A DNA stretch of 64,000 bases from Candidatus Eiseniibacteriota bacterium (GTDB lineage: Bacteria; Eisenbacteria; RBG-16-71-46; SZUA-252), in contig DASTKG010000025.1 in the NCBI GenBank assembly GCA_035716005.1, forward strand, positions 479-64,478, read 5' to 3'. The position numbers and the translations under genes are program-made. Under the pieces are notes generated by a model. The model did no database searches. It worked only from the letters and a program-made list of their open reading frames with translations, and had not been told where the DNA came from. Within the stretch, counting starts at the first letter, position 1. Each line of letters opens with the position of its first letter. Shown one piece after another: positions 11,587 to 64,000 of the stretch.

Positions 11587-12672
11587 CTACGGCAGGAACC
11601 GCTCCGGATGCGCGATCTTCTGGGGCAGGTACTCGTCCATCACGTAGTTGAGCCCGTGCGCCGCCAGCGCCTGCTGCTCGGCGCGGACCCCCATGGAGAC
11701 CAGGTGCTCCATCGCCTTCGCCCACGCCTTGTGGTGCTTGAAGAAGGGGTCGTTCTTGATGGCGTCCTTCGCCCGCTTCACGTCGACGTCCTTCAGCGGA
11801 TGCGTCGGCAGCTTGTAGTCGATGATGTCCTGCGGCGTGATGCCTAGAAAGCGCGCCTGCGGCACGCAGAAGAACTCGTTGATGTGCGCCGCGTTCCCCG
11901 AGCCGACCTTGAAGGTGCGGTAGATGTTCGAGATTCCGTACGGGTCTCCGTCGACGAAGACGTAGACCGGAATCTTCTTGTCGTCGGCCAGGCGGCGGAT
12001 GAAGCGCCGGCAGGCCCGCGTCGGCACGCCCCCCATCGAGACCAGGATGCAGTTCGCCTTCTTCCAGTAGCCGTGCTTCACGAGGCGCTGGAACATGCCG
12101 GCCGTCTCGATGACGAGGATGAATTTCGCCTTCGTCTCGAACTTCAGATGCTCGACCGAGATCGGGATCGAGTAGGCGCCGCTCCCGAATTGCGTGCAGT
12201 CGATGCGGATCGGCTTCCCCGTCTCCCCGTCCTTGTCGACGACGACGAGGGCGCCCGAAACGTCGCCCCCCTTCTCCTCGGGCGCGAAGCCCATCTGCTC
12301 GCGGTTCACCTCGAAGAGCGCTTCGACGTCGTCCATCACCGTGTCGGACTCCGTCTGCTCCAGGAAACGCGCGTCGCCCCAGTTCTTCGAGACGTAGTAG
12401 GCCTCTCGCTTCGTGGCGATGTCGTCGGTCTCGACCAGCGTCTTCGAGAGCGCCATCATGCGGAGCGTTTGGGCGAAGGTCTTCACCGTGTTCACGGTGA
12501 GGGTCCGCTCCTTCTTCATGCCGCGGATCTCGAAGTAGCCGTCCTTCTCCACGTACTTCACGTTCGCCAGCGAGCGGACGGGGAACTTCATCGTCGGCTT
12601 CTTCCGCTTGAGAATCTGGTCCTCGACGTTCTGCGCTTCCTTCCTGATCTTCGGTACCAGGTTCCCGCTCAT
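11587..12672 (-). CDS. top6A: DNA topoisomerase VI subunit A (Spo11/Top6A family)
   Basis: Winged-helix domain with catalytic-Tyr region (..[10 protein letters not shown]..). Toprim domain with acidic cluster (..[13 protein letters not shown].. / ..[10 protein letters not shown].. / ..[10 protein letters not shown]..). 361 aa, typical size. Confidence 0.9.
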
Positions 12673-14333
12673 GTGCGGCTCCGTTCCAGGACGTCCTTGA
12701 GGGTGGCGCAGACCTTGTCGCGCTCCTTGTCGCTGATGTCCAGGATCTCCTGGAGCGCGATGCCGATGTGGGGGATGTACTTCTCGATGTAGGAGCGCTT
12801 CTTCTCCTCGTCCGCCTCGCGGATGCCGCGCCGGATGTAGATGCCGAGCTTCCGGCCCACGTCCTGGAGGGCGAGCTTGATCTCCTTCATGATCTCGGGG
12901 TAGGAGGCGACCGCCTCCTTCGACTCCGACGTGAAGGGCACCCAGACCGACGCGATGTGGACCATGAGGATCATCGGCGCGGTGGGGAGCGCTCCCTTCG
13001 ACTGCTGGAGCCCGTACGCCTTCCAGTTCGTCTGGATCACCGACTTCGAGACGGCGCAGGCCGACTGCTGATAGAGGAGCGGCACGCGGTTCGCGAAGCG
13101 GAGCATCGTGATCAGCTCGTCGCCCGGGAGCGATTCGCCGCCGTAGGCGAGCGCCGCCTCCACGCAGAAGGGATTCCCGCGGTAGACGGCCGGCGAGCGC
13201 GACGTGGCCGCGTAGAACTTGGCCTCCACCTGCTTCTTCATCCCCGCGAGGAGCAGCTCCTCGCCGATCGGCGAGAGGACGTTCGACGGCGGCGCCATCA
13301 GCTTCGTCGCCTGGATCGCCTTGTAGAGCGCCTCCGCCTGGTCGCGCGCCGCCTTGTGCGGCGAGTACGAGGGCGGGAGCATGGCGGTCGCGGCGATCTC
13401 GTCGGCCGAGGCGGCGCTCACGCGCGAGAACTCGCTCGTGAGGAATCCCTGGAGATTCTTCGCCTTCGTCTCATGGAGCATCTTGAGAAGGATGCCGAGC
13501 TCCACGCCGTGCGGGTGGGGCTTGATCTCCTTCGGCGGAATCGGCAATTCGTGCGCCACGCGGGCGTACTCGACGCGCTCGCCCTTCGGATCGACGTAGG
13601 TGATCTGCGCGTGCGGATTGGCGATGGCGGTCTGCTCCACGTAGCCGTCGACCGAGTGGCGCCCCTTCTTGTAGGTCGCCTCGATCTCCAGCTCCACGCG
13701 CGTTCCGTGCGCGGGGATCCACTGCACCTCGTGATCCGCCACGACGACCGGCCGGTTCGCGCGCGTGTCGATCTGGATCTCGAAGCGATGCGCCGGCTTT
13801 CCGGCCCCGGGCTTCGAAATCACGTCGATCGCCTTCCCGGTGGTGAGCTGCCCGTACATGGCCGCCGCCGAGATGCCAATTCCCTGCTGTCCGCGCGACT
13901 GGCGGAGGCGATGGAACTTGGAGCCGTAGAGGAGCTGCCCGAAGATGCGCGGCACCTGCGCCTTCACGATCCCCGGGCCGTTGTCCTGCACGGCCACGCG
14001 GTAGCGCGTCTCGTTGATCTCCTGGATCTCGATCAGGAGGTCGGGAAGGATGCCGGCCTCCTCGCACGCGTCGAGCGCGTTGTCGACGGCCTCCTTCACC
14101 GTGGTGAGGAGGGCCTTCGCGGGGCTGTCGAATCCGAGGAGATGGCGGTTCTTGGTGAAGAACTCGCTGACCGAGATCTCGCGCTGCTTCTCGGCCATGT
14201 CGGCGGCGGTGAGCTGCACGACTTTCGGGGGCTGCTTCGGGCCGCGCTTCACGGCCCGGGCCGGCGCCGGCGGTTTGGCGGCGGCGGCTCGCTTGCCGCC
14301 GGTGCTCGTCTTCTTCGCGGTCGCTCCGCTCAT
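12669..14333 (-). CDS. top6B: DNA topoisomerase VI subunit B (GHKL ATPase plus transducer) with a basic Ala/Lys/Pro-rich N-terminal tail
   Basis: Bergerat-fold motifs EAVDNALDA (N box), QDNGPGI (G1) and [17 protein letters not shown] (G2). Transducer-domain region ..[14 protein letters not shown]... 4-nt ATGC overlap with top6A. Confidence 0.9.
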
Positions 14334-14655
14334 GGATTCCCTTCCCTCACATCCCCTGGTGAACTTCCTTAAACCGCCGGGACTCTACCCCCCGCGGCGC
14401 GGCGCCGCAAGGCCGGCGGCGGCTCGGAACTGGCCGGCGACCGAAAATCGGCCCGACCTTGCCCGGTCGGAACGCCCGCCCGCGCGTCCGAGGCGGCCCG
14501 CCGCTCGCGGGCGCAACCGCCTGCTAAAGCGTCCGCTCCACCCATGGCCGGCCCCGGCGCCCCACCCCTCGTCCGATGCCCGCCGGGGTGGCACGCCCAT
14601 TGCGATTTGCATCGCCAGGCCATCGTCCGTCCATTTCTCGAACCGGAGGCAGATC

Positions 14656-16152
14656 GTGAGCTCGACTCCCCGTCCGACGCGCCGCATGACGTCCATCCTG
14701 CTCGACTGCGGCCTCGTCACGTCCGAGCAGATCGAGCGGGCCGTCTCCCGCCAGACGGAGACCGGCCGCATGATCGGCGAGACGCTGGTCGAGCTCGGCT
14801 TCACCACCGAGGAGAGCATCATCTGGGCTCTCTCGAAGCAGCTCGGCGTTCCGTTCGCCGACGTGCAGCCCGAGGCCATCGATCAGGAGCTGGTCCGCCG
14901 CTTCCCCGAATCGCTCCTCCGGCGCACGCAGGCCGTTCCGCTCTTCCGTTCGCCGGAGGGCGTGACGGTCGCCTGCGCCGATCCCTCCGATCACGAAGCG
15001 GTCGCCGCGCTCCAGGAAGCCTCCGACGGCGCCGTCTCGTTCGTCATCGGCGGTCCGGCCTCGATCCGCCGCGCCCTCGACACCGTGCTCGGCCCGTCGC
15101 GGCCGACGCCGGCCGAGGCGCGCGTGGCCGTGCTGACCACCGGCGACGAGCCGCCGGCCAGCGACATCGTCTGGGACCGCGGCGGACGGAACTTCCTCCT
15201 CTTCCACCTCCACACGGCCCGGGAGAAGAAGGCGTCGGAGATCCACTTCATTCCGACCCCCTCCTCGCTGACGGTCTCGTATCGCACGGAGCACGGGCTC
15301 GAGACGCAGTCGAACGAGCTGCCGGAGACGGCGCTCTACCTCCGGACCCGGCTCCACTCGCTCGGCATCCCCGATCTCGATCACGGCGACGCCACGACCG
15401 CGCGCGGACGCACGACGGTCGATCTCGACGGCGGCCGGATCGCGCTCGACGTCTTCCACGCGCGGACCATCGGCGGGGTGGCCACCGTGATTCGACTGAG
15501 CCCGCTTCCGCACGAGGCGCCCGAACTCTCCGCGCTCGGCCTCTCGCCCATCGGCGAGGCCGAGATCCGGGAATTCGTCGACGGCCCCGAGGGCATCGTG
15601 CTCGTCACCGGGCCGCCGCGCTCGGGAGGCTCCATGGTTCTCGCCGCGCTCGCCGCGCTCGCCGCGCGGCCCGAGCGGCGCATTCTGGTTCTGGACGACG
15701 GATCGGCCGCGCCCTACCCGCGCGACTCGGTCCGCGTCTACACGTCGCCCTCGGGATCGTGCGTCCAGAGGGAGCCCCGGGCCACGAGCGGCGAGCGCTG
15801 GGACTCGCTCGCGCTCGGCCTGGGGGCCGACGTGGTCGTGCTCGACGGAACGCTCTGCGGCGAGTCGATCGCCGACGTCCTCTCCGGGGCCACGGTCGGA
15901 CGGCTCGTCTTCGCGCGCACCGACTGGCTCGACGCGAAGGCGCTCCTCGCCTACCTCGCGTCGCGCCCCGCCGGCAGGGCGGTGCTTCGCGACCGCCCGT
16001 TCGCGCTCGTTTCTCTCCCCAGCTGCCGTCACGAGGGGGCCGAAGCCTGGACGTCGCACGACGACGCCGACGGGCGGGCCGGCTGCCTCGAAGTCACCCT
16101 CCTTTCGGATGAAGATCGAGATGCGCTGGCGCGCGGAGGTAAGGCCCGATGA
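14656..16152 (+). CDS. GspE/PilB-family secretion-ATPase homologue with a degenerate active site; N-terminal T2SSE_N/MshEN-like domain
   Basis: GTG start 7 nt after a GGAGG ribosome-binding site. N-terminal ..LLDCGLVTSEQIERAVSRQTETGRMIGETLVELGFTTEESIIWALSKQLGVPF matches the MshEN/GSPII_E_N repeat. The N2 domain is recognisable (ASEIHFIPTPSSLTVSYRTEHGL..GRTTVDLDGGRIALDVFHARTIGGVATVIRL). Walker A is GPPRSGGSM with no Lys. Asp box, His box and tetracysteine are not conserved. Confidence 0.75.
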   Translation: MSSTPRPTRRMTSILLDCGLVTSEQIERAVSRQTETGRMIGETLVELGFTTEESIIWALSKQLGVPFADVQPEAIDQELVRRFPESLLRRTQAVPLFRSPEGVTVACADPSDHEAVAALQEASDGAVSFVIGGPASIRRALDTVLGPSRPTPAEARVAVLTTGDEPPASDIVWDRGGRNFLLFHLHTAREKKASEIHFIPTPSSLTVSYRTEHGLETQSNELPETALYLRTRLHSLGIPDLDHGDATTARGRTTVDLDGGRIALDVFHARTIGGVATVIRLSPLPHEAPELSALGLSPIGEAEIREFVDGPEGIVLVTGPPRSGGSMVLAALAALAARPERRILVLDDGSAAPYPRDSVRVYTSPSGSCVQREPRATSGERWDSLALGLGADVVVLDGTLCGESIADVLSGATVGRLVFARTDWLDAKALLAYLASRPAGRAVLRDRPFALVSLPSCRHEGAEAWTSHDDADGRAGCLEVTLLSDEDRDALARGGKAR

Positions 16153-17249
16153 CGCTGGATCTGACGACGCTGCTCAAGGCGACCCTCGAGGCCGGGGGCT
16201 CGGACCTCCATCTCTCCACGGGCCAGCCGCCGATGGTGCGCCTGCGCGGCCGAATGGTCCGCTCGCAGTCGGCGCCGCTCCACGAGGAGCAGTCGCGCGA
16301 CCTGGTCTATTCGGTCATGACGGAGGAGCAGCGCCGCAGCTTCGAGGCGGGCGCCGAGATCGACTTCGCGTTCCAGGTCCCGGGCCTCGCCCGGTTCCGC
16401 GCGAACGTCTTCCGCCAGCGAAACGGCGTCTCGGCGGTCTACCGCGTCATCGTCTCCCGGATTCCGACGCTCGAGGAGCTGAACGCGCCGCCGATCCTCC
16501 GCGAGCTCGCCCTGCGGGAGCGCGGCCTCGTGCTCGTCACCGGCCCCACCGGGAGCGGGAAGTCGACGACGCTCGCGGCCATGCTCGACTACGTGAACGA
16601 GAACCGCCAGGGCCACATCATCACGATCGAGGACCCGATCGAGTTCGTCCACGAGAGCAAGAAGTGCCTGGTTCACCAGCGCGAGGTGGGCGCCCACACC
16701 GAGAGCTTCGCGGCGGCGCTTCGGAGCGCGCTCCGGGAGGATCCGGACGTTCTTCTGGTCGGGGAGCTCCGCGACCTCGAGACGACCGCGCTCGCCGTCA
16801 CGGCGGCCGAGACGGGGCACCTCGTCTTCGGGACGCTCCACACGAATTCGGCGGCCAAGACGGTCGATCGCGTGATCGACATCTTCCCCGCCGACCGCCA
16901 GTCGCAGATCCGGACCATGCTGAGCGAATCGCTCGAGGGTGTCATCGCCCAGACGCTCCTTCCCACCGCCGACGGCAAGGGCCGCGTGGCGGCGCTCGAG
17001 ATCCTGGTCGGCGTTCCCGCCCTCCGGAATCTCATCCGCGAGGGGAAGACCACGCAGATCGCGAGCGTCATGCAGGTGGGCACGCAGCACGGGATGCAGA
17101 CGCTCGACCAGTCGATCATGGAGCTTCTCGCGTCGGGAAAGATCACCAAGGAAGAAGCGCAGGCGCGAACGAACAATCCGCGCCTCGCCGAGCCGCCGTC
17201 CGCCGCCGCCGGGGGGCGCCAGCCCGGCAAGTTGATCGTCCGGCCGTAG
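16149..17249 (+). CDS. pilT: Type IV pilus retraction (twitching motility) ATPase PilT
   Basis: ATGA overlap with the upstream gene. Intact Walker A GPTGSGKST. Asp box ITIEDPIEF. Walker B/His box DPDVLLVGELRDLET..GHLVFGTLHTNSA. The AIRNLIRE motif is present as ALRNLIRE. Confidence 0.92.
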   Translation: MTLDLTTLLKATLEAGGSDLHLSTGQPPMVRLRGRMVRSQSAPLHEEQSRDLVYSVMTEEQRRSFEAGAEIDFAFQVPGLARFRANVFRQRNGVSAVYRVIVSRIPTLEELNAPPILRELALRERGLVLVTGPTGSGKSTTLAAMLDYVNENRQGHIITIEDPIEFVHESKKCLVHQREVGAHTESFAAALRSALREDPDVLLVGELRDLETTALAVTAAETGHLVFGTLHTNSAAKTVDRVIDIFPADRQSQIRTMLSESLEGVIAQTLLPTADGKGRVAALEILVGVPALRNLIREGKTTQIASVMQVGTQHGMQTLDQSIMELLASGKITKEEAQARTNNPRLAEPPSAAAGGRQPGKLIVRP

Positions 17250-17413: not shown

Positions 17414-19009
17414 ATGGCGCAAAAAACGATACCGATCGCCGATCGCATCACCCGGGCCCTCGGCCGGGCCGCGACCCGGCAGGTCTTGAAGGGCGAACTC
17501 GGGTCCCAGACCACCTCCGCCGATCTGGCCGCCAGCGCCCGCGAGCATTGCGGCGGCGCGCGCGTCGTCATCGCCTCCTGCCGCGAGCCCTATCAGCACT
17601 CCCACGCCGAAGACGGTATCCGCGTCGTCCGAAGCCCCGGAGGCCTCGCCTCCGCGCTCGACTCCGTCGCGCGAGCCACCGGCGCCACGTGGGTGGCCCA
17701 GGCGACGGGCGACGCCGATCGCGACGTCGTCGACGAGCGCGGCCGCGTGGCGGTCCCTCCCGGCGAGGGGCGCTACACCCTCCAGCGCATCTGGATCGAG
17801 CCCGGCGAGCGCGAGGCCGAATTCCGCCGGTTCACGAACGGCTGCCTCTGGCCCCTCTGCCACATCGTCTACGTCCGCCCCCAGTTCGTCGCGAGCCAGT
17901 GGCGGGCGTACCAGGAGGTGAACGAGCAGTTCGCCTCGGCGATCCTCGACGCCGCGGGAGACGGCCCGGCCATCGTGCTGCTCCAGGACTTCCATCTGGC
18001 GCTCTGCGCCGCCACGCTCCGGGCGCGCCGGCCCGATCTCACCATCGTTCTCTTCTGGCACATCCCGTGGCCCAACTCGGAGGTCTTCCGCATCCTCCCG
18101 TGGGGCCCGAAGCTGATCGACGGACTCCTGGCCTGCGACATCCTCGGATTCCACATTCACTACCACGGCCTGAACTTCATCGACTCGGTCGCGCTCATGA
18201 TGGAGGCGCGCGTCGACCGGGAGCGCCAGGCGATCCTGCGACGGGGCCACCGCACCTACGTCCGCGCCTATCCGATCGCGCCCGACGCGGCCGAGATCTC
18301 CCTCGCGGCGAGCGAGCCGTGGGCGATTCGCGCGGCCGAGGGGCTTCGCCAGTCGCTCGGGCTGGGCGACGCGCGCGTCGTGCTCGGGGTCGACCGGCTC
18401 GATTACACGAAGGGGATTCCCGAGCGGATGGCGTCCTACGAGCGGTTCCTCGAGCAGCACCCCGAGGAGGCGGGCCGGACCCGATTCATCCAGATCGGCG
18501 TGCCCTCCCGCGTCGACCTTCCCGAGTATCAGGCTCTCGGCGCGAGCGTCGAGGCGATGGCGGCGCGGCTCAACGAACGCTTCGGCCGCCCCGGCTCGCC
18601 GGTCGTCCACCTCGTCACGCGAAACCTCGACTTCCGCGAGCTGATTCCCTACTACGTTCTGGCCGACGTTCTCGCCGTGACGTCGCTTCACGACGGGATG
18701 AACCTCGTCGCGAAGGAGTACGTCGCGGCGCGCGTTCATCAGGACGGCGTCCTCATCCTCAGCCCCTTCACGGGTGCCGCCCGAGAGCTGGAGCACGCGA
18801 TCCAGGTGAGCCCCTACGACGTGGAGGCCTCGGCGATCGCGATCGCCAGGGCCCTCGCGATGCCGCCTCAGGAACGAACGGAGCGGATGCGCTCGCTCCG
18901 CGAGGTGGTGGCCGCGAGGAACATCTACGACTGGGGCGCGAAGATCTTCCGCGACGTGAAGCGGCTCCACCTCGCGCCGAACGGATCGTCCCCGCCCCGG
19001 AGGCAATGA
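17414..19009 (+). CDS. otsA: alpha,alpha-trehalose-phosphate synthase (GT20)
   Basis: GT20 hallmarks: ..LWPLCHIV.. / ..LQDFHL.. / ..VLGVDRLDYTKGI.. / ..SLHDGMNLVAKEY... About 530 aa. Confidence 0.9.
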   Translation: MAQKTIPIADRITRALGRAATRQVLKGELGSQTTSADLAASAREHCGGARVVIASCREPYQHSHAEDGIRVVRSPGGLASALDSVARATGATWVAQATGDADRDVVDERGRVAVPPGEGRYTLQRIWIEPGEREAEFRRFTNGCLWPLCHIVYVRPQFVASQWRAYQEVNEQFASAILDAAGDGPAIVLLQDFHLALCAATLRARRPDLTIVLFWHIPWPNSEVFRILPWGPKLIDGLLACDILGFHIHYHGLNFIDSVALMMEARVDRERQAILRRGHRTYVRAYPIAPDAAEISLAASEPWAIRAAEGLRQSLGLGDARVVLGVDRLDYTKGIPERMASYERFLEQHPEEAGRTRFIQIGVPSRVDLPEYQALGASVEAMAARLNERFGRPGSPVVHLVTRNLDFRELIPYYVLADVLAVTSLHDGMNLVAKEYVAARVHQDGVLILSPFTGAARELEHAIQVSPYDVEASAIAIARALAMPPQERTERMRSLREVVAARNIYDWGAKIFRDVKRLHLAPNGSSPPRRQ

Positions 19010-19016
19010 CCCCCGC

Positions 19017-19811
19017 ATGTCCCGATCTCTCTTCGCCCATCGCGTCTGGGAACGGCTCCACGACACGCTCCGCTCCCGGGCGGCGATCCTCGTCGCCCTC
19101 GACCTCGACGGAACGCTCGCGCCGATCGTCGGGCGGCCCGAGAGGGCGCGCGTCCTTCCCCGCATCCTTCCCCTCCTCGCGAAGGGCGCGCGGAGGAGAC
19201 GCACGCGCATCGCGATCGTGAGCGCGCGGCCGGCGTCCGCCATTCGGCGGCTCGTTCCGATCGCCGGCGTGCAGCGCGTCGGCCAGTACGGGCTGGAGGG
19301 TCCCTTCGCGCCGCCCGCCGAGCGGCGCCGGACGCTTCATCGAGCCGCCGACGCCCTCGCGATCCTCGCGGAGAGCGGCGTGGAGCCGATCGCGGGGGCC
19401 TGGGTCGAGCGGAAGCGGCTCACGGTCGCGATTCACGGCCGCGCGGTTCCTCCGGTGCATCGCCCCGCGCTCGACCGCGTCGTCCATCGTCTCGCCCGAG
19501 ACGCGCGCCGTCTCGGGTTTCGCCCCCAGATCGGCCGCCGCGTGGTCGATTTCGTCCCGGCCGGTTTCGACAAGGGGACCGCGCTTCTGGAGATCATCCG
19601 AGCCCATCGTCCCGACGTGACGCTCTACTTCGGCGACAGCCCGTCCGACGAGCGCGCGTTCCGCGCCCTCGGACCGGACGACTTTCCGATCCGCGTCGGC
19701 GCGGGGGCGACGGCCGCCCCGTTTCGCGTCGGCGGACCCGGCGACGTCGCCCGGGTGCTGAGCGCCGTCGTTCGACTCAGGGCCGATTCCGCGTCCCATC
19801 CACGGAGGTAA
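19017..19811 (+). CDS. otsB: trehalose-6-phosphate phosphatase (HAD-IIB)
   Basis: HAD motif I LDLDGTL at the N-terminus and a C-terminal GDSxSDE motif (YFGDSPSDERAF). Immediately downstream of otsA. Confidence 0.8.
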   Translation: MSRSLFAHRVWERLHDTLRSRAAILVALDLDGTLAPIVGRPERARVLPRILPLLAKGARRRRTRIAIVSARPASAIRRLVPIAGVQRVGQYGLEGPFAPPAERRRTLHRAADALAILAESGVEPIAGAWVERKRLTVAIHGRAVPPVHRPALDRVVHRLARDARRLGFRPQIGRRVVDFVPAGFDKGTALLEIIRAHRPDVTLYFGDSPSDERAFRALGPDDFPIRVGAGATAAPFRVGGPGDVARVLSAVVRLRADSASHPRR

Positions 19812-19815
19812 TGCC

Positions 19816-20523
19816 ATGTCGCCGAACTGGGATTTCGCGTCGCTGCTTCCCCCTCACTTCGTGGAGCAGCTCCAGCTCACGCTCGTCGGACTCATCGGCG
19901 CGCTCGTTCTCTTTCTCATCGCCGCCGCGGTCGTCTTCGTCGGATGGCTCCTCGCCCTCGGCCTCAGCCGAGGCGTTCAGGGGCTCCTCGTGCTCCTCGG
20001 CATCGACGCCCCCGTCGCCAAGCTCCAGGCGAGGGAGCGCGCGCGGACGTTCGCCCTTCCGAGCCGCATCGCGAGCTACGTCACGTTCTGGAGCGTCCTT
20101 CTCGCCGCGTGCGTCTTCGCCCTGCGGGTCATGGGGCTCGACCTGGCGCCTTCCATCACGGCGCGGCTCCAGGACGTCGTGCCGCGCGTGCTCACGTCGA
20201 TCCTGGTCATGATCGCCGGCACTCCGATCGCGCTCGCCGCCGCGCGTCTCCTGAACACGCTCTTTCCCGTGTCGACGTCCCGTTCGGGCAAGATCCGGTA
20301 TCAGGTCTTCCTCTACATCCTGGTCGGGATCGTCCTTCTCCTCGCACTGGAGCAGCTCGGCCTCGCCGCGCAGCTCGTCATCGCGATCGGCGTCACCGCG
20401 GCCGGCGCCGTGGGCCTCGCCCTCGCGCTCGCGTTCGGGCTCGGTTGCCGCGAGCTGGCCCGGGATCTGATCGTCGAGTATCTCCGTGCGACGGAGACGG
20501 ACGCCGGAACCGACCGTCCGTGA
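19816..20523 (+). CDS. integral membrane protein with repeated 'conserved TM helix' segments (MscS-N-terminal-like)
   Basis: Four or five TM helices. Repeated hydrophobic motif like PF05552. No MscS beta-domain. Confidence 0.55.
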   Translation: MSPNWDFASLLPPHFVEQLQLTLVGLIGALVLFLIAAAVVFVGWLLALGLSRGVQGLLVLLGIDAPVAKLQARERARTFALPSRIASYVTFWSVLLAACVFALRVMGLDLAPSITARLQDVVPRVLTSILVMIAGTPIALAAARLLNTLFPVSTSRSGKIRYQVFLYILVGIVLLLALEQLGLAAQLVIAIGVTAAGAVGLALALAFGLGCRELARDLIVEYLRATETDAGTDRP

Positions 20524-21329
20524 CGACAGCGGATTCTTCCTTTTCGCTTCTCTCCGTCTCGCATCTGGAGTCCCCGACGGGGGCTTCGGCCGCGAGCCTC
20601 GAGGCGCTGCGGGAGGCGATCGCGGAGGCGGGGCACGACGTGCTCTTCCATCACGTCACGCGCCTTCCCATTCGCTTCGCCAACGCGCGCGACCTCCCCG
20701 CGAACGACTTCGCACGCTGGGCGAGGACGGCGCTGCAGGACCCCGCGGCGGCGGAGCAGCTCGCCTTCGCGGGGGCGCCTTCGCTGGCTCCGCTGGAGGA
20801 GGTGCGCGCGTCGCTTCTCGCCGCGCTGGAGCGCGTGCCGGAACGCCGGAGGCGGCACGAATCCCCGGAGGAGACGGCCTTCCGCTTCGTCCGGGCGCGG
20901 AGCGTCACGGCGCCCTTGTCGGCGCGGCTGAGCGATCCGCGGGACATCTCGACCCACTGGCCCCTCCTCGATCAAGCGTCCGTCTTCTATCACCTGGTGG
21001 AGGCCTCGGTGCTGGGGCCGGAACCGGCCGCGCTCATTCCCTGGCTCGAGGCCCGCGGCGCGGCCACGCTCGCGCGGCACGCGCGGGAACTCGCGGCGGC
21101 GGGACTGCCGCTCGCCCGTCTTCACCGCGAACTCGGAGCGCGATGGCGGCGGAGACTCATCCCCGAGCGCCTCGTGCGGCGGCTCGATGCCTCCGAGGAG
21201 CTGCGGCGGGCGGAGGCGCACGCCGCCATCGCGCGTCTGGCCGGCCGGCTTCGCGGCACGCCTGAAGCGAGCGAAGGCGGCGAGCCGGAGCCGGAGCCGC
21301 CGGAGAGCTCGGAAGGGGGGCGTCCATGA
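20520..21329 (+). CDS. hypothetical protein, translationally coupled to treT
   Basis: GTG overlaps the upstream TGA (GTGA), and its own TGA overlaps the treT ATG (ATGA). 269 aa, soluble, Arg/Ala/Glu-rich C-terminus. No recognisable domain. Confidence 0.45.
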   Translation: MTTADSSFSLLSVSHLESPTGASAASLEALREAIAEAGHDVLFHHVTRLPIRFANARDLPANDFARWARTALQDPAAAEQLAFAGAPSLAPLEEVRASLLAALERVPERRRRHESPEETAFRFVRARSVTAPLSARLSDPRDISTHWPLLDQASVFYHLVEASVLGPEPAALIPWLEARGAATLARHARELAAAGLPLARLHRELGARWRRRLIPERLVRRLDASEELRRAEAHAAIARLAGRLRGTPEASEGGEPEPEPPESSEGGRP

Positions 21330-22591
21330 GCGGAGTCGACGACGCCGTCCGGTCGGGCGATTCGCTCGGGGCCGGCCCCTCCACGCCGAGCCTCCTCGAT
21401 CGCTACAGCCGGGTGGTCGGCGCCGACGCCCTGCGCACCCTCGAGGCGCTCGCGCATCGGCTGGGCGGGCGGAGCGTCGTCATGGTGAACACGACGAAGT
21501 CGGGCGGCGGCGTGGCGGAGATCCTTCACCGGGTCGTCGTGATCCTGAACGAGCTCGGCGTGCCGACCCGGTGGGAGGTGATGGAAGGCGACCTCCGCTT
21601 CTTCAACGTGACGAAGAAGATGCACAACTCGCTCCACGGGCACGGAACGCCGCTCACGGCCGAGGACCGCGACGTCTATCGCGAGCAGAATCGGCTGGAG
21701 GCGCGGCGGCTCGCGCTCGACGACGACATCGTCCTCATCCACGATCCCCAGCCCGCCGCTCTCATCGACCACTGCCGCCGCCCCGGGCAGCAATGGGTGT
21801 GGCGGTGCCACATCGATCTCTCCCGCCGCGCGCCCGATCACTGGGATTTTCTCGCCCCGTGGGTCGCGGCCTACGACGCCGCGATCTTCTCGGCGATCGA
21901 GTTCGTGCCGCCGCTGCCGAATCCGGTCTACCTCGTGCCCCCCTCCATCGATCCCTTCTCCGAGAAGAACCGCGACATGCGGCTCGAGGAGGCCGAGGAG
22001 GTGCTCGCCTGCTTCGGGCTCTCCACGCGCCCTCCGCTCGTGACGCAGGTCTCCCGCTTCGACCGGATCAAGGACCCGCTCGGGGTCATCGAGGCGTTCG
22101 CGCTCGTCCGAAAGCGGCGCCCGGCGCAGCTTCTCCTCGCCGGAGGCGGCGCGAGCGACGATCCCGAGGGCGAGGAGGTCCTGGCGGAGGTCCGCGAGCG
22201 CGCGGCCTCCATGAAGGACGTCACGATCCTCGAGCTCCCTCCGATGTCGGACCGGGAGATCAACGCGATCCAGCGGGCGTCGGCCGTGGTGATCCAGAAG
22301 TCGCTCCGCGAGGGTTTCGCTCTCACCGTTTCGGAGGCGCTCTGGAAGCGCCGGGCGGTGGTGGCGAGCGCGGTCGGCGGCATTCCGTTGCAGGTATTGC
22401 ACGAGCAGACCGGGCTCCTCGTCCGCTCGATCGAGGGGACGGCGTTCCAGACGATCCGCCTCCTCGACAATCCGGTTCTGCGCCAGGAGCTGGGCGCCGA
22501 AGGGCGGGCTCACGTGCGCGACAACTTCCTCCACACGCGCGAGGTGCGGGACTACCTGGCGGTCTTCGCCTCGCTCCTGGACGCCCCTTGA
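21326..22591 (+). CDS. treT: trehalose glycosyltransferring synthase TreT-like GT4 glycosyltransferase
   Basis: Strong motif-by-motif agreement with archaeal/bacterial TreT: SGGGVAEILH, FFNVTKKMHN, HDPQPAALI, WRCHIDLS, PPSIDPFSEKN, TQVSRFDRIKDP, DDPEGEEV, NAIQRASAVVIQKSLREGFALTVSEALWK. Confidence 0.85.
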   Translation: MSGVDDAVRSGDSLGAGPSTPSLLDRYSRVVGADALRTLEALAHRLGGRSVVMVNTTKSGGGVAEILHRVVVILNELGVPTRWEVMEGDLRFFNVTKKMHNSLHGHGTPLTAEDRDVYREQNRLEARRLALDDDIVLIHDPQPAALIDHCRRPGQQWVWRCHIDLSRRAPDHWDFLAPWVAAYDAAIFSAIEFVPPLPNPVYLVPPSIDPFSEKNRDMRLEEAEEVLACFGLSTRPPLVTQVSRFDRIKDPLGVIEAFALVRKRRPAQLLLAGGGASDDPEGEEVLAEVRERAASMKDVTILELPPMSDREINAIQRASAVVIQKSLREGFALTVSEALWKRRAVVASAVGGIPLQVLHEQTGLLVRSIEGTAFQTIRLLDNPVLRQELGAEGRAHVRDNFLHTREVRDYLAVFASLLDAP

Positions 22592-62842: not shown

Positions 62843-62953
62843 GCCGCAACAACTTATGCACGCCTTCCGAGATGCCGTCCCATCGTGTCGCCCCTCCGGC
62901 CAGTTTGTCGCCTTGGCGCGGCAGGCCCGGGCGCGCTAGCGCCCCGCCCAGCC

Positions 62954-64000
62954 ATGCCCAAGGCCAAACCGAAATCGAAGGCCGCGCCGGCGGCGAAGCG
63001 CGCTCCCGGGGCCTCCGGTAAGCCTCGGCGCGGCCCCCGCTTCTCGCTCGCGTCCATCGATCGCGCCCTCCTCGCGATCCTCGTCCTCTCGACGCTCCTT
63101 CGCCTCTGGGGGATCGGCGATCGCCTCCCCGACGCGTCGCTCGGCATCAACGTCGTCGACGACACCGCCATCGAGGAGACCGACCGGACGACGGTCATGC
63201 GATCGTGGGCCATGTGGCAGGGGGGGATGAAGGAGTTCGACCTGAACCCCCACACGGGCGGATGGCCCGCCCTTTCGTTCTATCTCACGCTCGCCATCCA
63301 GATCTTCTACAAGGCCTGGTACGGCTTCCTGCACTCGGGAGTCACGACCGCCGAGTTCGCCAAGCACGTGCAGCTCGATTCGGCGGGCCTCTTCCTCCTC
63401 GCGCGCATCGTGAACGCGACGATCGGGATCCTGAGCGTCGCGCTCACGTGGCGCCTGGCGCTTCCGCTCGTGGGCCGCACCGGGGCGATCCTCGCCGCGG
63501 CGTTCCTCGCGACGAACCCGCTCCACATCCTCACCTCCCAGCACATCAGCGATCCCAATCTCCTGGCGCTGGTCTTCGTCGCGCTGGCGGCGGCGGCGAT
63601 GGTGAAGGTGGCGGACGAGGGGAGGACGCGCGATTCCGTTCTCGCCGGGATCTGGATCGGGCTCGCCGCGGCATGCAAGTACGTCCCGCTCGTCCTGCTC
63701 GCTCCGCTCGCGCTGGCCCATCTTCGCGGCGGCCGCTGGAACTGGAGGCCGTTCGCCCTCGCGGCCGGACTCGCGTTCGTCGCCATGTTCGCGGCCTCGC
63801 CCTACACCTTCCTCGACTGGAAGACGACGATGGACGCCTTCGGCGTGCAGCGGCGGAGCCTCTTCAGCGACTGGGTGGGGCAGTCGACCTTCCCGATCTC
63901 CCTTCCGACCTACCTCATCGCGTCCCTTCCGAAGGCGCTCGGCTGGCCCGTCTATCTCCTCTCGATCGCCGGCTTCGCGGGGCTCTGGCGAAAGGGAGGC
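62954..64000 (+). CDS. ArnT/PMT-family (GT39/GT83-like) membrane glycosyltransferase, 3' end outside the window
   Basis: Lys/Ala-rich N-terminus, then multiple TM helices. The ..DRTTVMRSWAMWQGG.. motif is characteristic of dolichyl/undecaprenyl-phosphate-sugar-dependent glycosyltransferases. The frame stays open to the window end. Confidence 0.65.
   Translation, partial: MPKAKPKSKAAPAAKRAPGASGKPRRGPRFSLASIDRALLAILVLSTLLRLWGIGDRLPDASLGINVVDDTAIEETDRTTVMRSWAMWQGGMKEFDLNPHTGGWPALSFYLTLAIQIFYKAWYGFLHSGVTTAEFAKHVQLDSAGLFLLARIVNATIGILSVALTWRLALPLVGRTGAILAAAFLATNPLHILTSQHISDPNLLALVFVALAAAAMVKVADEGRTRDSVLAGIWIGLAAACKYVPLVLLAPLALAHLRGGRWNWRPFALAAGLAFVAMFAASPYTFLDWKTTMDAFGVQRRSLFSDWVGQSTFPISLPTYLIASLPKALGWPVYLLSIAGFAGLWRKGG

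Follow-up and report, generated by a model that had tools for sequence, protein, structure and literature searches.

Bacterial topoisomerase VI (Topo VI) was placed by Allen & Maxwell 2024 (PMC11302465) in a cluster near DPANN and Euryarchaeota, and topo VI-bearing bacteria outside Pseudomonadota and Terrabacteria were found to be without Topo IV. The same paper treats as unanswered the question of why bacteria keep the enzyme, sometimes beside gyrase and Topo IV, and suggests 'alternative accessory proteins' (PMC11302465). The extreme N-terminus of the B subunit is a strap, which swaps onto the ATPase fold of the partner when the ATP gate closes (PMC13040014). This study concerns a top6B-top6A gene pair within a 64-kb stretch of DNA from a Candidatus Eiseniibacteriota bacterium (contig DASTKG010000025.1; 'the window' hereafter denotes that whole stretch), in which Top6B carries an additional lysine-rich tail ahead of the strap. 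Within the large bacterial Topo VI clade to which it belongs, the gene pair is unremarkable, and the short hydrophobic motif seen in other lineages is missing from its tail. The tail itself is real, clade-wide and, apparently, undescribed.

Positions below are those of the window, and the principal features of the pair are as follows:

12669..14333, reverse strand: top6B coding sequence, 554 aa (basic tail, strap, GHKL ATPase, H2TH, transducer, C-terminal stalk), from the open reading frame, NF003218, PDB 2q2e_B and AlphaFold.
11587..12672, reverse strand: top6A coding sequence, 361 aa (winged-helix R89/Y93, all-beta domain, Toprim E189 and D241/D243), from PF04406, PF20768, PF21180 and PDB 1d3y.
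12669..12672, reverse strand: ATGA, the overlap of the top6B stop and top6A start, read in the sequence.
14220..14333, reverse strand: top6B codons 1-38, the lysine-rich, acid-free, disordered N-terminal tail (net +10), outside the family model and solved structures.
14148..14219, reverse strand: Top6B residues ~39-62, the conserved N-terminal strap, which aligns with M. mazei Top6B from residue 6.
13797..14114, reverse strand: GHKL ATPase core (Pfam HATPase_c, residues 74-179) with N box E81/N85, G1 box DNGPGI (117-122) and G2 box GQQGIGIS (148-155), all in invariant columns.
12798..13292, reverse strand: Top6B transducer (residues 348-512; PF09239, 8.9e-58) with WKxY (W437-Y440) and switch lysine K472, invariant across 42 homologues.

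Both subunits were found to be complete. Top6A matched Pfam TP6A_N (PF04406, 4.1e-15), the all-beta domain PF20768 and, over the whole length of the model, Toprim (PF21180, 1.3e-60). It aligned with the M. jannaschii Top6A structure (PDB 1d3y, 3.8e-109), R89/Y93 of the REAYY motif corresponding to M. jannaschii R99/Y103, and it kept the metal-binding residues E189 (in IETAG) and D241/D243 (in DGDPYG). The best curated NCBIfam equivalog for Top6A, NF003337, scored 483 bits against a cut-off of 675; this shortfall is not evidence against membership, since such models are tuned to archaeal subgroups and all three Pfam domains exceeded their cut-offs. Top6B contained HATPase_c and the transducer PF09239, and its equivalog NF003218 scored 706 bits against a cut-off of 274. 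Its alignment with the M. mazei structure 2q2e_B (1.5e-159) ran from residue 43 to 535 without large gaps, the H2TH region included. Residues E81, N85, D117-G121, G148-G153, the KKGR loop, WKAY (W437/Y440) and K472 were all kept, with the N, G1 and G2 boxes invariant in 42 homologues. The AlphaFold model of Top6B, made from an alignment of 42 sequences, had a confident core (mean predicted local distance difference test (pLDDT) 86.4, predicted template modelling score (pTM) 0.80).

Through the agreement of Pfam, NCBIfam and structural alignments it was confirmed that the gene pair is an intact Topo VI with every catalytic motif kept, as an earlier note on this DNA, made from the sequence alone, had claimed; the boundaries given there match the open reading frames exactly, as does the overlap of 4 nucleotides. 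The ATGA overlap recurs in a relative (L082), and translational coupling of top6B and top6A is probable. Adjacent A and B genes, an arrangement shared with relatives, fit an A2B2 assembly. A defence nuclease (Wadjet JetD/MksG or Gabija) was also considered and rejected, as PADLOC returned only a 23.9-bit JetD echo over the Top6A Toprim and nothing for Top6B, and the neighbouring genes are of the housekeeping kind.

The tail comprises the extra N-terminal residues of Top6B, ~38-42 in number, since neither the family model nor the M. mazei structure aligns before residue 43. The 38 residues ahead of the strap include 7 lysines, 3 arginines and no aspartate or glutamate, for a net charge of +10 (K 18.4%, R 8%, A 24%, P 16%, D+E 0%), which bears out the claim that a basic extension absent from archaeal Top6B is present. 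The confident open reading frames of the window have 2.8% lysine and ~11% Asp+Glu; lysine is therefore enriched 6.6-fold in the tail, in opposition to the bias of a genome with 69% GC. In the AlphaFold model, pLDDT was below 50 at residues 1-31 and secondary structure was absent until a helix at 43-49. The tail is thus predicted to be intrinsically disordered.

Two features upstream bear on whether the tail is translated:

14337..14348, reverse strand: Shine-Dalgarno-like GAGGGAAGGGAA, ending 4 nucleotides ahead of the ATG at 14333.
14385..14387, reverse strand: in-frame TAG stop 18 codons 5' of that ATG, which makes 14333 the earliest possible start; conserved in relatives L081, L082 and L001.

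The tail could be an annotation artefact, the true start being the in-frame GTG (V39) or ATG (M46) and the product a canonical Top6B; the family model opens at residue 43, V39 would equal model position 1, and open frames may extend by chance in DNA of high GC. However, neither V39 nor M46 is preceded by a Shine-Dalgarno-like sequence, whereas GAGGGAAGGGAA precedes 14333. In a DNA alignment of the locus with three relatives, the Shine-Dalgarno-like box, the ATG and the first ~15 codons were invariant but for a single A/G difference. Insertions and deletions within the tail were in frame (+15/-12 nucleotides), while those of the intergenic region were not (1, 21 and 22 nucleotides). The G-C content of third codon positions (GC3) was 0.895 for the tail, 0.95 for the Top6B core and 0.68-0.78 for intergenic frames; the same top6B start was picked by gene callers on two independent metagenome contigs, and tail composition is conserved over hundreds of sequences. 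By the ribosome-binding sequence, the conserved ATG and TAG, the in-frame indels, GC3 and the independent start calls, it was shown that the tail is translated. A later start, which the earlier note had itself raised, was accordingly rejected and must be regarded as very improbable.

The distribution of the tail was examined in protein and genome collections. A search of 5.8 billion proteins produced more than 8000 matches, the best 120 of which (78-96% identity) were mostly labelled Candidatus Eisenbacteria; the NCBI lineage of the window's host is the candidate phylum Eiseniibacteriota. A basic tail was present in every one of the 119 full-length close relatives, most of which are Eisenbacteria; it is between 20 and 79 aa in length, with 27% K+R, 3.7% D+E and a net charge of +6 to +20. 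Mean identity to the window's Top6B across these relatives was 40% for the tail but 87% for the core. Since net charge has been kept while the sequence has diverged to this extent, the pattern was read as selection on the charge of the tail rather than its sequence.

A scan of species-representative genomes (one genome per species) showed that at least 599 stretches encode this type of Top6B. The best 80 comprised 75 bacterial and 5 DPANN archaeal loci, the former belonging to at least nine phyla (Eisenbacteria, Acidobacteriota, Myxococcota, Planctomycetota, Krumholzibacteriia, Fibrobacterota, Elusimicrobiota, Spirochaetes-labelled and Gemmatimonadales); the closest was L001, an Eisenbacteria metagenome-assembled genome with 93% identity. 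Of the 63 bacterial species-level loci whose 5' end could be determined, 45 had a tail that reached 25 aa and carried a net charge of +5 or more, as against none of the five DPANN loci. Cluster representatives at 50% identity gave a similar picture: bacterial-like top matches are often tailed (P0123, for example, has 40 K/R in 96 aa), and distant archaeal-like representatives start 0-7 residues ahead of the core. The reading given by the earlier note therefore fell on two points: the tail is not a peculiarity of this genome but universal in a well-populated Eisenbacteria clade, the very circumstance that the note had named as refuting its view, and the description of Topo VI as only sporadic in bacteria understates its occurrence.

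In a neighbour-joining tree of Top6B cores, the sampled bacteria formed one clade adjoining tail-less Woesearchaeota and Nanoarchaeia, with the window's Top6B inside a compact Eisenbacteria group (L001-L005), in agreement with the published position of the bacterial cluster near DPANN and Euryarchaeota. Top6A identities ranked the relatives in the same order. The GC3 of the operon is host-like, no mobile elements were found nearby, and the divergent PilB-like/PilT gene pair beside top6BA is conserved in relatives. Owing to its clade placement, conserved synteny, host-like GC3 and the lack of anything mobile nearby, the pair was interpreted as an old, vertically inherited chromosomal operon. 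One irregularity was noted within the Eisenbacteria: in L003 (7551-8644), top6A is seemingly split by a frameshift ~150 codons in, which is probably an assembly error or a pseudogene.

Taken together, the interpretation that we favour, with moderate confidence, is that of a vertically inherited chromosomal operon for an active A2B2 enzyme, with the tail serving as an electrostatic DNA tether on the strap. Tails of this kind would characterise bacterial Topo VI as a whole, having been gained once the enzyme had passed from DPANN-like archaea, in which Top6B has none. The operon would then encode an active type IIB topoisomerase, probably the decatenase of the lineage, because the published pattern is that Topo VI-bearing bacteria outside Pseudomonadota and Terrabacteria are without Topo IV. 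Within the 64 kb of the window, no gyrase, Topo IV or dnaN genes occur. Being fused straight to the strap, the tail would project from each A2B2 assembly as a pair of flexible +10 arms where the gate opens. Most likely acting by charge and not sequence, it would be a non-specific tether that raises local affinity for DNA and aids its capture or retention. The lysine repeats of actinobacterial (Streptomyces) TopA, which stabilise the enzyme-DNA complex and give processivity (PMC5714199), provide an analogy for this role. A tail at the ATP gate that is predicted to be disordered and has kept its charge across hundreds of genomes opens the function of bacterial Topo VI to direct experiment.

Several observations weigh against this interpretation. 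DNA binding by any Top6B tail is inferred, and the lysine density of the tail (18%) is below that of proven DNA-binding Ala-Lys-Pro (AKP) tails. Conservation is far stronger over the first 8-15 residues than further along the tail, synonymous sites included, a hint that bulk charge is not all that matters. Nor is a long N-terminal tail indispensable, since it is missing from a few bacterial subclades. Furthermore, the Top6B tree is a crude one that lacks support values and was drawn from a sample biased towards the window's own protein.

The contiguity of tail and strap is also compatible with a regulatory role, in which the tail modulates B-subunit dimerisation or ATPase activity (e.g., DNA-dependent gate closure or autoinhibition) and is not a passive tether. 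Tail-less bacterial subclades carry a GHKL surface-loop insertion instead, which would be consistent with this, but a tail so variable in length (20-79 aa) and sequence is poorly suited to precise allostery, and regulation of the gate was judged quite unlikely.

A tail rich in alanine, lysine and proline might alternatively have been captured from a histone-like gene (H1/Hc1/HU-tail type) through domain fusion, and the tails of P0123 and P0121 do include strongly H1-like KKAA/AKKA runs. However, no Pfam family matched the tail alone at E<=10, whether the window's own or that of the most H1-like relative. Tails of different lineages could not be aligned with one another, a pattern that fits the evolution in situ of low-complexity sequence, and the window's tail is without a repeat unit. 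H1 tails are ~40% lysine, so that the 18% observed here is roughly half. The H1/Hc1-type resemblance suggested initially thus stands at most for composition and not for homology, which is the only sense in which the tail is 'histone-like', and capture of a histone-like gene is extremely improbable. Nor is there a genome-wide habit of lysine-rich tails to be invoked, as the two other lysine-rich segments in the window are a spurious antisense open reading frame and the cytoplasmic N-terminus of a membrane protein. The latter (62950-64000, forward strand, running past the window end) is a multi-pass protein, glycosyltransferase-like by appearance, which opens with the Lys/Ala/Pro-rich MPKAKPKSKAAPAAKRAPGASGKPRRGPR; this N-terminus is probably a case of ordinary positive-inside membrane topology.

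Many bacterial tails open with a short hydrophobic motif that is followed by a basic run. The motif resembles those that bind the beta sliding clamp, for which the described forms are Q-phi-x-L-F (consensus QL[S/D]LF) and Q-phi-x-L-x-L, with positions 1, 4 and 5 weighing most (bioRxiv 10.64898/2026.05.27.728225). Examples from the literature are QLVLGL of E. coli Pol IV, QLSLPL of Hda, QVELEF of Pol III alpha, QLDLF of PolY1 and QLELF of B. subtilis Pol I. Such literature-defined patterns were present in 15 of 62 non-redundant long tails, whereas 1000 composition-preserving shuffles averaged 0.64 and never exceeded 4, a difference that is indicative only, as the motif was noticed before the patterns were fixed and the sequences are related. 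More persuasive are the replication searches in two lineages. The first concerned a Myxococcota lineage, where ~86 of 118 proteins begin M-x-[DE]-Q-x-x-[FL]-x-F (motif residues 4-9, QESFAF type) and continue with hypervariable basic sequence. The second concerned the Acidobacteriota/Polarisedimenticolia lineage, where Q[MLI]xLF occurs in 87 of 114 tails; 71 of these are QMDLF and 12 are QLDLF, the latter being the exact published consensus, while most of the remaining proteins start at the internal Met of the motif. Single loci display QLVLGL (the very sequence found in E. coli Pol IV), QLGLF, QPSLF and QASLF.

Neither Top6B nor Top6A of the window contains a clamp-type pattern (penta-, hexa- or MutL-type), and the motif is missing from 104 of the 119 close relatives. 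N-termini within Eisenbacteria can be arranged in a series, from MAKRQLELIPRK (QLELI) through MAQAQLKK[IM]PRK and MAQALKKD to MSGATAKKT in the window's protein, such that the motif position decays in the order QLELI, QLKKI, ALKKD and ATAKK; more divergent Eisenbacteria keep QLEVLF, QLEVSF and QEELLF. On these comparisons, the window's lineage is one in which the hydrophobic motif has been lost and the basic tract retained. An ancestral bacterial tail would have been gained after the DPANN-like transfer and, following loss of the clamp motif in this lineage, the basic tract would have been left.

Such a series might also be expected if the tail were a functionless relic, the low-complexity remainder of a motif-presenting ancestor that drifts after decay of the motif, and hypervariability in both sequence and length would agree with this. 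But drift at 69% GC should erode AAG/AAA codons and admit acidic residues, and the 119 relatives have instead retained their positive charge and a low acidic content; none of them is without a tail, and the start region is invariant. A relic was therefore considered unlikely, and the retention of the tract after motif loss argues that it has a function of its own.

A related alternative is that the tail is mainly a partner-docking element, its N-terminal octapeptide (MSGATAKK / MAQALKKD / MAQAQLKK) being a diverged motif that recruits the clamp or another factor, with the basic run as a linker. The extreme N-terminus is indeed the most conserved part of the tail, the octapeptide sits where other lineages carry the clamp-type motif, and deep Eisenbacteria still have QLELI, which is near the QLELF of B. 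subtilis Pol I. Nonetheless, the window's protein has none of the key clamp-binding residues (positions 1, 4 and 5), and docking as the main role is likewise improbable.

The tether interpretation can be extended, tentatively, to a history of the tail; we hold this extension possible, though with less confidence than is needed to prefer it outright. The tail seen here would be the remnant of a bacteria-specific adaptor, consisting of a clamp motif and a polybasic DNA-binding linker, that was grafted onto an archaeal-derived Topo VI after transfer. The adaptor would link the enzyme to the replisome for removal of precatenanes behind the fork, as Topo IV does elsewhere. Acidobacteriota (QMDLF/QLDLF), Myxococcota (QESFAF) and Planctomycetota (TLFD) would keep the full module, and a Fibrobacterota/Gemmatimonadota-type subclade would have moved a similar pair of elements into the GHKL loop ([ND]LGLEL plus an NGK-rich run). 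The window's lineage would then have the tether only, making it a natural separation-of-function variant. No paper was found in which a bacterial type II topoisomerase, Topo VI included, is linked to the sliding clamp, a review table of bacterial clamp partners has no topoisomerase among its entries, and no paper describing the Top6B basic tail or its motif was found. The main value of the locus therefore lies at the family level, in the combination of basic tail and clamp-type motif in several phyla. If the link to the clamp is true, bacterial Topo VI would become the first type II topoisomerase of bacteria with a demonstrated connection to it, and an example of a horizontally acquired archaeal machine adapted to the bacterial replisome.

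Other variation in Top6B was apparent among the homologues. The tail-less bacterial subclade (Fibrobacterota/Gemmatimonadota/Krumholzibacteriia types) has an insertion of 26-46 aa in the GHKL loop, comprising [ND]LGLEL and then an NGK-rich run; it follows the position of residue 104 in the window's protein and is carried by L031, L040, L045, L046, L050, L066 and L074. In L071, a Planctomycetota Top6B, GVGLELEED...KKRKKK is inserted in a transducer loop near the AYGG loop, such that a hydrophobic 'GLEL' element with a basic run recurs at different sites of Top6B. A compensating basic C-terminal tail was sought in tail-less bacterial Top6B and was not found, as all bacterial proteins stop at the same residue; compensation, if any, lies in the internal GHKL-loop insertion. 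Woesearchaeota Top6B (L058, L068, L078 and L079) have acidic C-terminal tails of 24-78 aa with a shared [FY]DEE[FL]A (e.g., EEFDEEFAKIG). Since no bacterial Top6B extends past the core at its C-terminus, bacteria and archaea would appear to have a disordered adaptor at opposite ends and of opposite charge. Many cluster representatives (P0121, P0124, P0125, P0136, P0140, P0160, P0167, P0171 and others) are 800-1570 aa long and match the window's Top6B in two or three separated stretches, a pattern suggestive of inteins, or of large insertions of another kind, within the GHKL and transducer regions. Where top6B and top6A are separated, no conserved accessory gene was identified between them, the inserts being heterogeneous (M32 carboxypeptidase-like, methyltransferase-like, aminotransferase-like and others).

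The earlier note had placed a PilB/PilT pair divergently across 320 bp. Its orientation was upheld, but the spacing between top6B and the PilB-like gene is ~352 bp by the start used here (322-366 bp in relatives). Upstream of top6B, positions 14371-14470 (reverse strand) contain a strongly conserved non-coding block, CGGGCAAGGTCGrGCCGATTTTCGG..CGCCGGCCAGTTCC, and a second conserved block, CCTTGCGGCGCCGCG..GGTAGAGTCCCG, that resembles TTGCGG-N17-TAGAGT. The latter was considered as a sigma-70 promoter for top6B and was rejected because, despite its conservation, the consensus scan was empty. No structured RNA or riboswitch was identified in the ~350-bp intergenic region (zero Rfam matches at E<=1). 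At 14589-14603 (forward strand), ~83 nucleotides 5' of the PilB-like gene, TGGCACGCCCATTGC has a sigma-54-type -24/-12 pattern; it is the sole match of this type in the window (0.05 expected), and the intergenic block is invariant in three relatives. This suggests a sigma-54 promoter that serves the PilB-like gene alone, with regulation separate from that of top6BA.

The PilB-like protein (14686-16152, forward strand) has an MshEN/c-di-GMP-binding N-terminus (NF053729, 49.9 bits against a cut-off of 38), a Walker A sequence, GPPRSGGS, without lysine, and only a partial match to the T2SSE domain. PilT (16149-17249, forward strand) is intact (GPTGSGKS; TIGR01420, 500 bits), and the PilB-like protein may be a c-di-GMP-sensing pseudo-ATPase that partners it. 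Directly 3' of PilT is a trehalose synthesis cluster (17414-22591, forward strand; GT20 OtsA-like, trehalose phosphatase and TreT-like synthase), which is kept in relative L081 and has other genes in its place in L082.

In comparison with known systems, the pair has the same two-subunit architecture and the same catalytic and DNA-sensing motifs as archaeal Topo VI (M. mazei 2Q2E, S. shibatae 2ZBK and M. jannaschii Top6A 1D3Y). Archaeal Top6B, unlike that of the window, starts 0-7 residues before the strap without a basic N-terminal tail, and M. mazei Top6B has an Ig-like C-terminal domain that is absent here. In terms of the survey by Allen & Maxwell 2024 (PMC11302465) the pair belongs to the bacterial cluster, and their pattern predicts that gyrase is present beside it and that, as in bacteria other than Pseudomonadota and Terrabacteria, it takes the place of Topo IV; its host phylum, Eiseniibacteriota, lies outside the 17 families and 7 phyla of that study, which never mentions an N-terminal tail, disorder or lysine. 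Like proteins with beta-clamp motifs, the Top6B tails of relatives hold QLDLF/QMDLF, QLGLF, QLVLGL or QESFAF in a disordered terminal region, the usual setting; their clamp binding is putative, and the window's own Top6B differs in having no motif. The histone H1 C-terminal domain, chlamydial Hc1 and the AKP tails of HU-like proteins are Ala-Lys-Pro-rich, disordered and cationic, a composition that the tail broadly resembles, but the tail has no homology to them, contains 18% lysine as against ~40%, is without repeats and belongs to an enzyme rather than a chromatin protein. The best functional analogue is Streptomyces TopA (PMC5714199), another topoisomerase of high-GC bacteria with a polybasic, low-complexity extension, although it is a type IA enzyme of no homology whose extension is C-terminal and has much longer repeats.

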